Assembly (NCBI GenBank): GCA_964342815.1
Contig: CAYFHS010000003.1
Span: 64,001 to 128,000 of the forward strand
Length of the DNA stretch: 64,000 bases
Direction: 5' to 3'
Origin: an uncultured archaeon
GTDB taxonomy: Archaea; Thermoplasmatota; Penumbrarchaeia; JASLWR01
Each line of letters begins with the position of its first letter. Positions within the stretch are counted from its first letter, which is position 1. The notes below the pieces were generated by a model. The model saw nothing but the letters and a program-made list of their open reading frames with translations. It was not told the DNA's origin and made no database searches. This document shows positions 34,714-40,916 of this stretch, one piece after another. The position numbers and the translations under genes were made by a program.

Positions 34714-35190
34714 ATGATAAAAAACAGATTGAGCGATATCGGTGGGAAATTGAACGTCAGCTTGGAGGATATAAGGGGCATGAAGGGCGAACGTCGTAAA
34801 AAGAAATATTTATATCCGTTTCTTCTCGCGGTAGTTGGGGGAATTGCAGCTCTAATGGGCTGTTTGAAAAGTGGAAACGGCGGTGGTGGGGGCGGTAATG
34901 GAACGGTGGTGAATGAAACCATAAATACTGAAAATAATTCCGGGACTTATCCGTACATGATCCCGTCATTCATCGGTATTATGGGGGTGGGAATGGTTTT
35001 CAGGGCCAATAAATACCGGAAAAAGCAGTTGATACTCGTTTTATCGGCAGTAGCGATACTGATTATCGGTATTTTACTGCTCTTTAATGGATCCGATTTG
35101 GTTGAAGCCGCAGAAAATCTTGTCAGGAACGGTAATGAAACCGGGAACTTCAGCGAGGCAGTGGATTACGGAGTTTATTCTAGGAAGTAA
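34714..35190 (+). CDS. Array member A: small 3-TM membrane protein with YPY and C-terminal YGVYS motif
   Basis: GGAGGTG SD; N-terminal L.DIGGKL.VS.EDI; GTYPYMIP; ends DYGVYSRK. Confidence 0.85.
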   Translation: MIKNRLSDIGGKLNVSLEDIRGMKGERRKKKYLYPFLLAVVGGIAALMGCLKSGNGGGGGGNGTVVNETINTENNSGTYPYMIPSFIGIMGVGMVFRANKYRKKQLILVLSAVAILIIGILLLFNGSDLVEAAENLVRNGNETGNFSEAVDYGVYSRK

Positions 35191-35195
35191 AATAA

Positions 35196-35588
35196 ATGGA
35201 TAATGGAAAGCTGAATGAGATTGGGATGAAACTTGAAGTCTCGGAAGAAGACATAATACAATTAAAAAGAAGATACCTACTGATAAAGATATTATGCCCA
35301 ATTATCGGTTTATTAATTTCAATGTTTATTCCAATGACGATAGATTCAGTGACATCCACATATAATCACCAGAATAATTCTTCGTACCCTTACGCAATTC
35401 CGTTTTTGCTTTTTGTGGGAACCGGAAGTTTGGAATCACCCGATAAAATAAAACGAAGGGGTAAAATTATAATTCTTATTACTGCAATCATTACTTTATT
35501 TCTTTCGATAATGATATGGAAGGAGGGTTCCTTTCGAGTATCATCATTGTATGGTGTTTTTTCAAGTAAAAAATTGAAGATCAGATGA
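35196..35588 (+). CDS. Array member B: small membrane protein with YPY and YGVFS motif
   Basis: KLNEIGMKLEVSEEDI; SSYPYAIP; LYGVFSS. Confidence 0.85.
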   Translation: MDNGKLNEIGMKLEVSEEDIIQLKRRYLLIKILCPIIGLLISMFIPMTIDSVTSTYNHQNNSSYPYAIPFLLFVGTGSLESPDKIKRRGKIIILITAIITLFLSIMIWKEGSFRVSSLYGVFSSKKLKIR

Positions 35589-35638
35589 TAAAAGCAACAG
35601 AGAGATATGAGTTATGCATTCAAAGGAACGGTAGGTTC

Positions 35639-36097
35639 ATGGACAAAGGAAAACTGAATGAGATCGGCGGGAAATTGGATGTCAGAATTGAGGATATACG
35701 GGGGATGAAGGATGAGCGTCGTAAAAAAAAATATCTCTATCCGTTCCTTCTTGCTGTGGTGGGAGGTATTGCAGCACTTATGGGTTGTTTGAAGAGTGGA
35801 AACGGCAGTGGAAATGAAGCTTCGGCGAATAATACTACCGGGACTTATCCATACATAATCCCGTCCTTCATTGGTATAATGGGTGTGGGAATGGTCTTTC
35901 GGATCAATAAAAACCGAAAAAAGCATTTGATACTCGTTTTATCGGCAGTGGCGATGTTAATTACCGGTATTTTTCTGCTCTTTAAAGGATCCGGTTTGGT
36001 GGAGGCAGCAGAAGATGTTGTCAGAAACGGAAATGATTCCGGGAATTTCAATGGTTCGATAATTTACGCAGCATATTCATTGGAGCAAAATACATGA
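35639..36097 (+). CDS. Array member C: near-duplicate of member A, tail YAAYS
   Basis: MDKGKLNEIGGKLDVRIEDI (start set to ATG 35639); shares KKKYLYPFLLAVVGGIAALMGCLKSGNG with A; GTYPYIIP; IYAAYSLE. Confidence 0.85.
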   Translation: MDKGKLNEIGGKLDVRIEDIRGMKDERRKKKYLYPFLLAVVGGIAALMGCLKSGNGSGNEASANNTTGTYPYIIPSFIGIMGVGMVFRINKNRKKHLILVLSAVAMLITGIFLLFKGSGLVEAAEDVVRNGNDSGNFNGSIIYAAYSLEQNT

Positions 36098-38498: not shown

Positions 38499-38924
38499 AT
38501 GGATAAAGAAAAACTAGCGAAGATCGGCGAGAAGCTCAACGTTTCCAAGGATGAAATAAATAGATTACGGAAACGCAGGATTTTAACAAGGATATTCGCA
38601 CCAATCTTGGGAATCCTGGGAGTCTTTTCCTCTCTGGTAACCGGGCTCGTCCTGGGTCGGGGTGGCGGGCCCTATCCGTACGGAAGGCCATCATTTGGTT
38701 TTTTAGGTTGCTCCATTAGTGGGACTATAAGCTTTGGAAGTATTATTGGCATTCTAGTTATGATACGAAAGACCAAAAAGAACGGAAAGTCGGATAAATA
38801 TCTCCTAGTAGTACTGATAGCCACATTATTACTATCTCTAATTACACTGGTTGCGGGTTTAGCTGTGGGTGAGGATAATTTTTCTGCAACGCCGAAATAT
38901 TCAGTATATTCAATGGAACGGTAA
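38499..38924 (+). CDS. Array member F: small membrane protein, YPYG and tail YSVYS
   Basis: MDKEKLAKIGEKLNVSKDEI (start set to ATG 38499); GPYPYGRP; KYSVYSMER. Confidence 0.85.
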   Translation: MDKEKLAKIGEKLNVSKDEINRLRKRRILTRIFAPILGILGVFSSLVTGLVLGRGGGPYPYGRPSFGFLGCSISGTISFGSIIGILVMIRKTKKNGKSDKYLLVVLIATLLLSLITLVAGLAVGEDNFSATPKYSVYSMER

Positions 38925-38928
38925 CTAT

Positions 38929-39390
38929 ATGAATAAAGAAAAACTGGCCGAGATCGGCGGAAAACTCGATATCACCAAGGAAGAGTTTAGAAATATCCAC
39001 AAACAGCGTCGCAAAGAAAAGATTAACACCATTCTCACAGGTGGCATAATCTCAATAATTTCTATGCTAACAGGTTATTTCATTGGTAAAAATAGTGAAC
39101 CAAGAATGGAGCATCGGGGATACCCTTATGGAATGTTGGGAAGTAGTTTTTGTTGTGGTGCCGGTATGGGGGGAATAATGGGAGGCTTTGGTTTCCTTTA
39201 CTTACTGACTTACCTTAATGGAAAAAAGAAACATAAAACGATGATGTCGATTCTGGTATTATTCTTCATTATTTTATCGGTAATAGCAATCATTTTTGGA
39301 CATGAAGTAGGACGACCTGTGGAATATTACAGTGGGGCGATCGATTATGGTGTTTTCTCGAGGGATCAAAGAGTTGTAAATAATGAATAA
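38929..39390 (+). CDS. Array member G: small membrane protein, YPYG and YGVFS motif
   Basis: MNKEKLAEIGGKLDITKEE (start set to ATG 38929); RGYPYG; EYYSGAIDYGVFSRD. Confidence 0.85.
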   Translation: MNKEKLAEIGGKLDITKEEFRNIHKQRRKEKINTILTGGIISIISMLTGYFIGKNSEPRMEHRGYPYGMLGSSFCCGAGMGGIMGGFGFLYLLTYLNGKKKHKTMMSILVLFFIILSVIAIIFGHEVGRPVEYYSGAIDYGVFSRDQRVVNNE

Positions 39391-39847
39391 TGAGAAATTG
39401 ACCGAAATCGGCAGTAGGCTGGACGTTTCCGAGACGGATATGGATGGTATTAGGAAACGTTATCGTCTCACAAAGATAATCACAACGATAGCAGGGGGAC
39501 TTGTTGTCATCGTTTCGGCAATAATCGGTTACATGGCGGGTAACAGCGCAGCAGGGAGGGATGCAGCTAACGACGCCGGGGCGATACTAGTGAACCGCGA
39601 GACTGGCGAGGTTTATCCTTATATGATACCTGTCTTTCTGGGACTGGTGGGCGGTATGTCCGCGTCCGGTCTCAGAAAAAGGACAAAACTGGTCATAATT
39701 GCGGGTATGATCCTGACTACAATACTCGCGGTCTTGGGTTATATGCTTGCGCATGGTATGGCCTACGACAACGTCTACGACGCAGCACGGGGAATAGAAT
39801 ATTACAGTGGGGCAATCGAATATGGCGTTTACTCGAAAGAAAGGTAA
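39383..39847 (+). CDS. Array member H: small membrane protein with YPY and YGVYS motif
   Basis: MNNEKLTEIGSRLDVSETD; VNRETGEVYPYMIP; EYYSGAIEYGVYSKER. Confidence 0.85.
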   Translation: MNNEKLTEIGSRLDVSETDMDGIRKRYRLTKIITTIAGGLVVIVSAIIGYMAGNSAAGRDAANDAGAILVNRETGEVYPYMIPVFLGLVGGMSASGLRKRTKLVIIAGMILTTILAVLGYMLAHGMAYDNVYDAARGIEYYSGAIEYGVYSKER

Positions 39848-40916
39848 TAAAAAAACCGCTCCCGATTACAGCATCGGATGCGCCGTGTGGGAAACCACCC
39901 TCGCGTGCAACATGAAATGCACACATTGCGGCTCAAGCGCAGGCAAGGCTCGTCCCGACGAACTTGACACCGGAGAGTGTATCAAACTTGTCGAGGACCT
40001 AGCTCAATTGGGATGCGGGACTGTGGCCCTTATGGGCGGCGAGCCTCTGGTGCGGGACGATTGGAAACAGATCGCCGGGTGCGTCAAAGACCTTAATATG
40101 GACCTCTCCATCGTGTCGAACGGTCTTCTTATGGAGAAATACATGGATCGGATAAGTTCACTTGAGCCCAAGGTTGTGGGAATAAGCCTCGACGGACTCA
40201 AGAAAACCCACGATTCCATCAGGCGAAAGGGATCTTTCAAAACCGCTATGAATGCTATAAAACTTCTCAGAGATAATGATATTCAAGTGACCGTAATAAC
40301 CACTGTTAGTAAGAAAAATTTCAATGACCTCACCAGGATGAAAGACCTTGTAATCAAAAAGGGCGTGAACTGGCAGATACAGGTGGCCATGCCAATGGGC
40401 AATTTCGACCGGGAACATCTCATAAGCGACGAGGACTACTACGCCGTGGCCATGTTCATAGCCTCCCAGCGGATAAAACACCCTTTTGAGGAATTACCCG
40501 TTATCGGCGCGCACTGTTTCGGTTATCATTCAAAACTGCTTCCGGACTCTAACACGTGGAAAGGATGCACCGCAGGTATAAGCAGTCTTGGTATTACGAG
40601 CAACGGCGGCGTGGCGGGATGCCTGTCAATGGGAAATAACAGGTTCATCGAAGGAAACATCAGGAAAAGATCGATAATAGATATCTGGAAAGATCCGAAT
40701 TCTTTTCGCTACAACAGAAAATTCAAGACCTCCGACCAGGGGGGGAATTGCTCGGGGTGTCGCTACGGTGAAAGCTGCAAGGGAGGGTGCAACTCCATGT
40801 CATACAGCCTGACTGAAAAGATGCACAACGACCCGTACTGTTTCAAAAGGATAGAGGAAGAGATCATAGGAGTCAAAAAGGGGATCTTCGAACGGATAAA
40901 GACTCGTCTCCGGTGA
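39822..40916 (+). CDS. Radical SAM/SPASM peptide-protein maturase, PlpX (splicease)-like
   Basis: AVWETTLACNMKCTHCGSSAG (CxxxCxxC), DEL, LMGGEPLVR.DW; SPASM GCTAG.SSLGI.SNG.V.GC, GNIR.RSI.DIW, CSGC-x5-C-x3-C...PYC. Confidence 0.9.
   Translation: MAFTRKKGNKKTAPDYSIGCAVWETTLACNMKCTHCGSSAGKARPDELDTGECIKLVEDLAQLGCGTVALMGGEPLVRDDWKQIAGCVKDLNMDLSIVSNGLLMEKYMDRISSLEPKVVGISLDGLKKTHDSIRRKGSFKTAMNAIKLLRDNDIQVTVITTVSKKNFNDLTRMKDLVIKKGVNWQIQVAMPMGNFDREHLISDEDYYAVAMFIASQRIKHPFEELPVIGAHCFGYHSKLLPDSNTWKGCTAGISSLGITSNGGVAGCLSMGNNRFIEGNIRKRSIIDIWKDPNSFRYNRKFKTSDQGGNCSGCRYGESCKGGCNSMSYSLTEKMHNDPYCFKRIEEEIIGVKKGIFERIKTRLR

Follow-up and report, generated by a model that had tools for sequence, protein, structure and literature searches.

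Arrays of small membrane proteins paired with a radical SAM/SPASM enzyme and a methyltransferase: a candidate protein-maturation cassette in archaea

The window analysed here is a 64,000-nucleotide (nt) stretch of DNA from an uncultured archaeon of the phylum Thermoplasmatota (GenBank assembly GCA_964342815.1, contig CAYFHS010000003.1, positions 64,001 to 128,000). On its plus strand, eight co-oriented genes for paralogous small membrane proteins (34714–39847) are flanked upstream by a gene for a methyltransferase fused to tetratricopeptide repeats (TPR) and downstream by a gene for a radical S-adenosylmethionine (SAM) enzyme with a SPASM domain (Table 1). A first-pass annotation made from the letters of the window alone had proposed that the small proteins are substrates of the enzyme. 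This is very probably so, because the two occur together in all 11 genomes of a 301-genome sample that encode the small proteins, lie side by side in about 40 loci and are joined in a controlled model of the complex.

The gene array and its products

All eight open reading frames (ORFs), of 130–158 amino acids (aa), are present as first annotated, their tails read exactly as given there, and a radical SAM/SPASM gene does close the array. The tight packing described earlier holds for the gene junctions, which measure 1–50 nt or overlap (the stop of small gene 8 overlaps the start of the radical SAM gene), but a gene for a 465-aa paralogue of elongation factor 1-alpha (EF-1alpha) interrupts the array after its fourth copy. 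Copies 3, 6 and 7 are read from internal ATG codons at 35639, 38499 and 38929, and an alternative ATG for copy 3 lies further upstream at 35585. When a profile of the eight copies was searched against the 4.35-Mb assembly, it matched these eight places only (E values of 7e-57 to 2e-40); the eight-gene pattern is therefore real and far beyond chance. The array is also the biggest single one among the loci examined. The unit as first described, that is, small proteins plus radical SAM gene, was correct in both members but overlooked the conserved methyltransferase gene directly upstream of the array, which lay outside its bounds.

Table 1. Genes of the array and its flanks in the window
Feature	Coordinates	Strand	Basis
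432-aa methyltransferase-TPR protein	33311..34609	+	Pfam Methyltransf_11/23, TPR_1
Small membrane protein 1, 158 aa, tail DYGVYS	34714..35190	+	ORF, alignment, genome profile search
Small membrane protein 2, 130 aa, tail LYGVFS	35196..35588	+	ORF, alignment, genome profile search
Small membrane protein 3, 152 aa from MDKGKL, tail IYAAYS	35639..36097	+	ORF, alignment, genome profile search
Small membrane protein 4, 139 aa, tail MYGVYS	36094..36513	+	ORF, alignment, genome profile search
Divergent EF-1alpha paralogue, 465 aa, basic C-terminal extension	36641..38038	+	TIGR00483 match
Small membrane protein 5, 146 aa, tail VYGVYS	38054..38494	+	ORF, alignment, genome profile search
Small membrane protein 6, 141 aa from MDKEKL, tail KYSVYS	38499..38924	+	ORF, alignment, genome profile search
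Small membrane protein 7, 153 aa from MNKEKL, tail DYGVFS	38929..39390	+	ORF, alignment, genome profile search
Small membrane protein 8, 154 aa, tail EYGVYS	39383..39847	+	ORF, alignment, genome profile search
Radical SAM/SPASM maturase, start GTG 39807 or ATG 39822	39807..40916	+	PF04055, PF13186

Copy 3 is 74% identical to copy 1 and the other copies only 25–32%, but the two ends of the proteins are shared. In an eight-way alignment every copy opens with M-x-x-x-K-L-x-E-I-G-x-K-L-x-V-S-x-E-D-I and ends in a Y-x-x-[Y/F]-S tail, with M1, L6, I9, L13, an internal Y-P and the Y..S of the tail invariant. Among 59 aligned homologues, Y-P and the tail tyrosine are the sole three invariant columns. 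The core read from 71 unique tails is [F/Y]-[G/S]-x-[A/S/G]-[I/V]-X-Y-[G/N/D/S/A]-V-[Y/F]-S-[R/K]; its tyrosine is present in 100% of them and is followed by a further 5–27 residues. The position after this tyrosine is G in 46 tails, N in 14, D in 7, S in 3 and A in 1; the second is V in 65 (92%); and the third is aromatic in 65 (Y in 43, F in 22). By contrast, residue X directly before it varies freely (D, E, L, K, M, R and others), and in the window array it is Asp, Leu, Ile, Met, Val, Lys or Glu. Six of the eight window copies have Gly after the tyrosine, the exceptions being IYAAYS and KYSVYS. Thus, of the 'YG motif' that had been read in the array the tyrosine stood, whereas the motif itself is better written Y-[G/N/D/S/A]-V, because Gly fills its place in only 46 of the 71 homologous tails (65%).

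By hydropathy, 46 of 67 homologues have two hydrophobic segments, while 20 have a weaker third directly after Y-P; of the three hydrophobic helices first proposed, two are thus robust throughout the family, whereas the middle one is weak. In an AlphaFold2 model of copy 8 (pLDDT 72), a helix-turn-helix leader continues into the first transmembrane helix; a disordered Y-P-Y loop comes next, then a helix of 12 residues and a long final helix, and the tail is again disordered. The tail would be cytoplasmic if two helices span the membrane and outside if three do; the Lys/Arg cluster that precedes the last helix would speak for three spans with the tail outside. The earlier designation of these molecules as surface proteins is not established, because on hydropathy and the model a two-span topology would leave the tail cytoplasmic. 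The small proteins matched no family in scans of NCBIfam and Pfam. Their layout is like that of RiPP precursors (RiPPs being ribosomally made peptides that undergo post-translational modification), except that membrane helices sit between leader and core.

The enzyme and its partners across archaea

Depending on the start codon, the enzyme is 364–369 aa long, and its orthologues are about 337 aa. It matched PF04055 (89 bits) and PF13186 (36 bits), and CNMKCTHC, GGEP and seven or more SPASM cysteines are invariant among 41 orthologues. Its CX3CX2C motif begins at residue 29 of the 364-aa reading, and the enzyme therefore carries no N-terminal RiPP recognition element (RRE) domain; consistent with the first-pass annotation, no separate RRE, protease or transporter gene is present at the locus. 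The 4.35-Mb genome contains no close paralogue of the enzyme, the next best match scoring 41 bits.

Seventy-nine NCBIfam models matched the enzyme, all below their cutoffs. The best was TIGR03913, a GDL-motif peptide maturase (220.7 bits, cutoff 591.75), followed by TIGR04103, the nif11-class maturase 3 that we take to be IPR026482, the subclass of PlpX itself (205.7 bits over model positions 4–360 of 412, cutoff 725; 208.5 bits in the whole-genome search). Next came TIGR04133 (156.1 bits, cutoff 425), AhbD (146, cutoff 500), NirJ (140, cutoff 515), MftC (135.8, cutoff 265), AhbC (123, cutoff 650) and PqqE (78.5, cutoff 381), and the WgkB, StsB, SkfB and DynA models gave 86–129 bits. The nearest curated models are thus peptide-maturase families, and the enzyme therefore does not group with the cofactor families, given that AhbC/D, NirJ and PqqE fall below both their cutoffs and the peptide-maturase models. 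As judged from these comparisons, it belongs to no curated family.

Orthologues 57–80% identical to the enzyme are named just 'radical SAM protein' in metagenome-assembled genomes (MAGs) of Thermoplasmatota and Asgard archaea. A search of 1.84 billion representatives returned 442 proteins at E ≤ 1e-30, and in a FastTree phylogeny of 158 radical SAM domains the orthologues form a discrete clade set off by a gap in scores (577–644 bits, then 509 and 471, then at most 394). For the 20 nearest 50%-cluster representatives across this tree, the best model for the matching domain was TIGR04103 or TIGR03913 (165–317 bits); none of these 20 sampled neighbour clades exceeded any NCBIfam cutoff, in a tree of 158 domains without a characterised-enzyme anchor. 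By these scores, a large group of uncurated sequences surrounds the splicease models, and the enzyme belongs to it. A sequence search of the Protein Data Bank (PDB) with the enzyme returned only SkfB (E value 1e-22), PqqE, MoaA and similar proteins, and no splicease structure.

The first-pass annotation had suggested a profile of the small proteins as a check on their co-occurrence with the enzyme. Such a profile, built from 59 sequences, matched 11 of 301 genomes of the phylum, and the same 11 carry the orthologous radical SAM gene, nine of them with scores above 590 bits and two (G001 and G035) with the gene split into two ORFs. No genome among the 301 has the small proteins without the enzyme, and ten genomes with only second-tier radical SAM enzymes (363–460 bits) gave no small-protein match. 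The genomes that share both are related MAGs, and we read the 11 of 11 as strong linkage, not as a statistic. In the two split cases the ORFs encode 186 and 115 aa (G001, a same-genus MAG, JASLWR010000003.1; loci L032/L094) and 270 and 123 aa (G035; L031), which could stem from a frameshift or an assembly error or mark pseudogenes.

Neighbourhoods were compared in long contigs, in eleven regions from relatives and in two scans at one genome per species, and adjacency of the cassette genes was conserved in about 40 loci. Where flanking DNA was available, 1–8 small proteins and a methyltransferase of about 430 aa almost always lay beside the enzyme; the exception (L027/L079) keeps the methyltransferase, but the only called genes by the enzyme are of 54 and 65 aa and unmatched by the small-protein profile. 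The hosts are Thermoplasmatota, Hel-, Hod-, Hermod-, Heimdall- and Promethearchaeota, Undinarchaeota, MAGs labelled Nanohalarchaeota and a few labelled bacterial (Patescibacteria, Chloroflexia). They include the cultured Promethearchaeum syntrophicum MK-D1 (L080, at about 1.573–1.586 Mb of NZ_CP042905.2; radical SAM 594 bits, methyltransferase 352 bits), whose three small proteins end in ILYNVYD, MDYDVYD and IKYGVYD. From Thermoplasmatota to Asgard lineages the enzyme is 57–66% identical. On a 427-kb contig (JGI 3300050342; L025), the methyltransferase, one small protein and the radical SAM enzyme stand amid bacterial-looking genes, among them PNPase, ribosomal proteins S15 and L19 and an intein-carrying FtsH; from this context the cassette may occur in bacteria too.

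The product of the window's methyltransferase gene combines, by Pfam, a class I SAM methyltransferase in its N-terminal ~165 aa with a helical/TPR domain. Its orthologues, of 28–46% identity, adjoin the radical SAM and small-protein genes in Asgard, Thermoplasmatota and other loci, and on this gene order we regard it as a conserved third component of the cassette. An AlphaFold2 model (pLDDT 86) retrieved generic class I methyltransferases alone with Foldseek (TM-scores of at most 0.5), and a PDB profile search returned TPR repeats and weak methyltransferase matches only; these fold and profile matches permit no inference about its substrate. A 731-aa top match, P0121, was considered as a methyltransferase–radical SAM fusion and rejected, being in fact two tandem radical SAM/SPASM domains that provide no fusion evidence for the methyltransferase link. 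P0121 and the 938-aa P0148 are natural fusions of two different radical SAM/SPASM maturase domains, one half of each TIGR04103/TIGR03913-like and the other TIGR04133-like (P0121) or Clo7bot maturase-like (P0148).

We modelled the complex of the enzyme (41-row alignment), SAM, three 4Fe–4S clusters and small protein 8 (59-row alignment). Three runs gave ipSAE values of 0.84, 0.77 and 0.80 (0.80 overall) versus 0.00 for three controls. The ipSAE mark used, which 58 of 80 solved complexes reach, as do 2 of 110 mismatched pairs, is only a rough guide here given the custom alignments and the ligands carried along. The runs had at least 62% of contacts in common, with a partner pLDDT of at least 53. 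Confident contacts involve residues 1–30 and 139–143 of small protein 8 and residues 167–171, 185, 204–219, 228–246 and 348–352 of the enzyme. Residues 139–143 (E-Y-Y-S-G, core positions −8 to −4) take in the conserved [F/Y]-[G/S] that opens the core. The model supports docking of the leader on the enzyme but gives no support for a core positioned in the active site. Binary spliceases likewise have no RRE, and their leader helix sits where the Y protein binds in PlpXY (PMC11414181); the modelled docking matches this published arrangement.

The ten genomes with second-tier enzymes, often two or three in tandem, hold sister systems. The neighbours of these enzymes are non-membrane peptides of about 51–99 aa that share the leader helix (EIGKALGLNKNDIDEVL and ISQKLDLKRDDIQKI are examples), and their C-terminal cores read RYGTVS (twice in one peptide), YYGTIS, RYGGIS, RYGGAS, RYGTFS, FYGSVS, LYSSID and YYSSIG. 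The invariant Y-P of the membrane proteins is absent from them, and NCBIfam and Pfam scans of the sister peptides matched no family. The same methyltransferase family recurs at the sister loci (235–290 bits), often with an AMP-binding enzyme. In L066–L071, L098 and L102, two or three tandem radical SAM/SPASM genes accompany a 51–80-aa peptide with leader and Y[G/S], a methyltransferase-TPR protein and a 430–460-aa PaaK-like AMP-binding enzyme, and L066 additionally carries an Old-Yellow-Enzyme-type flavin oxidoreductase. By their gene content, these loci resemble the same pathway acting on a soluble peptide, with additional tailoring. A leader plus a core of Tyr and a small residue is the common substrate grammar.

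Candidate chemistry and its alternatives

We propose that the cassette, comprising the methyltransferase-TPR protein, the eight precursor-like membrane proteins and the radical SAM/SPASM enzyme, serves protein maturation. Each precursor would present a cytoplasmic N-terminal leader helix (KLxEIGxxLxVSxxDI), two robust helices and a weak third, and a 12-residue C-terminal core. The enzyme, without an RRE, would bind the leader helix directly, on a helix that lies between the radical-SAM barrel and the SPASM domain, and would then turn to the invariant tyrosine of the tail. As to the chemistry, a splicease-type reaction that removes a tyramine equivalent seems likeliest; residue X before the tyrosine would become an alpha-keto-beta-amino amide with a different side chain in each paralogue, and the methyltransferase would add a second modification. 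The analysis itself shows the gene architecture, the conservation throughout the family, the strict co-occurrence and, as a model, the leader–enzyme interface; we infer the tail tyrosine as target, the splicing, the role of the methyltransferase and that of the product, and we put editing of the tail tyrosine by tyramine excision at a little under an even chance. In its favour, the PlpX-type TIGR04103 is among the nearest curated models, this clade and its sister systems both build on Tyr followed by a small residue, and X is free. The window core, A-I-X-YGV[Y/F], is also close to a splice tag derived from PlpA, AVAA-X-YGVVF (PMC10533398, Table 1).

Several observations weigh against this proposal. 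The scores for TIGR04103 (206 bits versus 725) and TIGR03913 (221 versus 592) are far under their cutoffs; the enzyme, in which the first-pass annotation had seen a likeness to PlpX, is thus no member of the PlpX family. The tree of 158 radical SAM domains contained no characterised splicease sequence. Where an XYG splice site would have its hallmark Gly, 35% of homologues and two of the eight window copies carry N, D, S or A. In the modelled complex, the invariant Tyr147 and residues 144–154 are not among the confident contacts; no described spliceotide pathway in the literature searched needs a methyltransferase-TPR partner; and if the middle hydrophobic segment spans the membrane, the tail would be extracytoplasmic and modification would be needed before insertion.

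Some of these points would suit a different radical chemistry in the same cassette, namely a Tyr–Val C–C or C–O cross-link (a triceptide-like three-residue cyclophane), or beta-hydroxylation or another product of hydrogen abstraction, followed by methylation, which we consider possible but less probable than splicing. The tyrosine and the valine two residues on are the most conserved positions of the core, as an aromatic-X-X motif would have them, and the tolerance of N, D, S and A between them is unexpected for a strict XYG splice site. Radical SAM/SPASM enzymes of this size commonly form cross-links (WgkB, StsB, SkfB and DynA being among the models matched), and an O-methyltransferase partner would suit tailoring of a phenol. 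However, the cross-linking families all score below TIGR04103 and TIGR03913, and a free X directly before the tyrosine is the expected look of a panel of splicease substrates. The sister cores bear on the choice as well: their second position after the tyrosine is T, S or even G (RYGGIS, RYGGAS), which has no C-beta, whereas the tyrosine and the small residue stay constant, and a cyclophane from Tyr to C-beta is therefore disfavoured as the common chemistry.

The small proteins might instead be membrane anchors or regulators that recruit the radical SAM enzyme and the methyltransferase to act on a lipid, a cofactor or another molecule. The modelled interface uses an N-terminal helix that could equally be a docking helix, the invariant tyrosine is not confidently placed in the enzyme, and the generic methyltransferase fold is as like those acting on small molecules or lipids as those acting on proteins. 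We nevertheless think this improbable: the soluble 51–80-aa sister peptides keep leader and tyrosine core, a precursor signature, which argues strongly that the small proteins are substrates rather than anchors, and there are 1–8 copies per enzyme with X hypervariable in a fixed core. A membrane-tethered, peptide-derived redox cofactor or quinone seems more improbable still. Mycofactocin is made by MftC from a C-terminal GVY, the terminal triad of MftA, and pyrroloquinoline quinone (PQQ) by PqqE from Glu and Tyr; the tails here hold G-V-Y, each protein has two invariant tyrosines, the MftC and PqqE models do match (136 and 78.5 bits), and membrane redox carriers matter to the hosts, which are anaerobes. 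But both models score below those of the peptide maturases as well as their own cutoffs (265 and 381), 39% of tails have Phe or some other residue, not Tyr, as the last member of G-V-[Y/F], which is never C-terminal, no MftB/D/E-like or PqqB/C/D-like genes flank the locus, and eight divergent paralogues are hard to square with a single cofactor.

If tyramine excision is the chemistry, backbone editing so far shown only on bacterial peptides would extend to archaeal integral membrane proteins. A further reading, speculative and on balance unlikely, is that archaea, among them the Asgard relatives of eukaryotes, splice the backbones of membrane proteins into a genome-encoded panel of membrane-tethered alpha-ketoamide 'warheads', with X varying by paralogue. 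If true, these might be tethered inhibitors or traps for Ser, Cys or Thr proteases, or carbonyl prosthetic groups, and tyramine splicing would for the first time be known outside bacteria, on membrane proteins and in conjunction with a dedicated methyltransferase. The 57–66% conservation of the enzyme from Thermoplasmatota to Asgard archaea would imply a cellular rather than an antibiotic role, and the grammar of a leader plus a 12-residue core suggests a portable tag for protein engineering. If the chemistry is not splicing, the cassette would still be a widespread, unnamed protein-modification system.

Relation to described systems and the interrupting gene

The closest described parallel is with the binary (type II) spliceotides RhaX/RhaA, RcsX and RasX of Rheinheimera (PMC11414181, PMC11626197), in which a lone radical SAM/SPASM enzyme likewise has no RRE or Y protein, an N-terminal leader alpha-helix is predicted to bind the enzyme, and the target is Tyr plus a small residue with a variable residue before it. 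Their precursors are soluble peptides, whereas those described here are 110–170-aa integral membrane proteins in arrays of 1–8, with Gly not always after Tyr, an obligatory methyltransferase-TPR neighbour, archaeal hosts and no protease or exporter. The type I system PlpX/PlpY with PlpA (taken here as TIGR04103; PMC11002830, PMC10533398), whose PlpX has been assigned to InterPro IPR026482 (PMC11002830), offers the second-best model match and the tag that resembles the window core, but the enzyme here is far below the 725-bit cutoff, and the cassette has neither a PlpY/RRE gene nor a Nif11/NHLP leader. The best match, at 220.7 bits, is TIGR03913, which has a cutoff of 591.75 bits, and the 59-homologue alignment of the small proteins has no conserved GDL; the literature searched contained nothing on the chemistry of that family. 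The TIGR04133/TIGR04134 lipoprotein system also pairs a radical SAM/SPASM enzyme with small membrane-associated proteins, but the score is 156.1 bits against 425, and the partners here start with a cytoplasmic helix and then a transmembrane helix, without lipobox or signal peptide. Triceptide maturases share the aromatic-X-X core (Y-x-V) and a compact radical SAM/SPASM enzyme; they differ in giving no family-level match, and Gly at the third position in the sister systems is incompatible with a C-beta cross-link. From mycofactocin MftC/MftA the cassette differs in score (135.8 bits versus 265) and in precursors that do not end in Val-Tyr but run on for 5–27 residues past the tyrosine.

A survey in Chem by Scott et al. 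in 2022 reportedly lists 27 characterised and 939 predicted splicease systems. We found no paper on this cassette in the literature searched, which did not cover that survey, and literature searches for TIGR04103 and for archaeal or Asgard radical SAM-SPASM membrane-protein systems returned nothing relevant. A review describes YG-rich splicease neighbourhoods in 189 bacterial genera (PMC10849128), and thousands of spliceotide and graspetide clusters have been reported in 'bacterial and archaeal genomes' (PMC11626197). The cassette is therefore new relative to the literature searched, although the clade may already have been listed among predicted spliceases. What is added here is the phylum-wide co-occurrence, the soluble sister systems, the motif statistics in which Gly is not obligatory, the controlled complex model and the exclusion of the EF-1alpha paralogue.

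This paralogue, which interrupts the array, was considered as a component of the cassette and rejected, because its orthologues are rare and occur also off the array and in a genome without the cassette. Only 3 of 60 relatives have one: the sister genome G001 in the same place in the array (95%), G003 on a contig without small proteins (72%) and G051, which lacks the cassette (69%). The protein scored 410 bits with TIGR00483 (cutoff 540) and is about 40% identical to a canonical EF-1alpha on another contig (C12; 647 bits); its GTPase motifs GHVDHGKS, DAPGH, NKID and SAW are intact, and it ends in a Lys/Arg-rich extension of about 50 aa. The G+C content is 0.515 at 36–38 kb versus 0.39–0.44 in the flanking small genes. 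We regard it as an insertion specific to this lineage that probably plays no functional part in the cassette. Scans for sigma-70 promoters and intrinsic terminators were at background, with models ill suited to archaea. Downstream of the radical SAM gene, a non-coding gap of about 500 nt (40917–41421) is followed by a convergent gene for a 197-aa helix-turn-helix-like protein.

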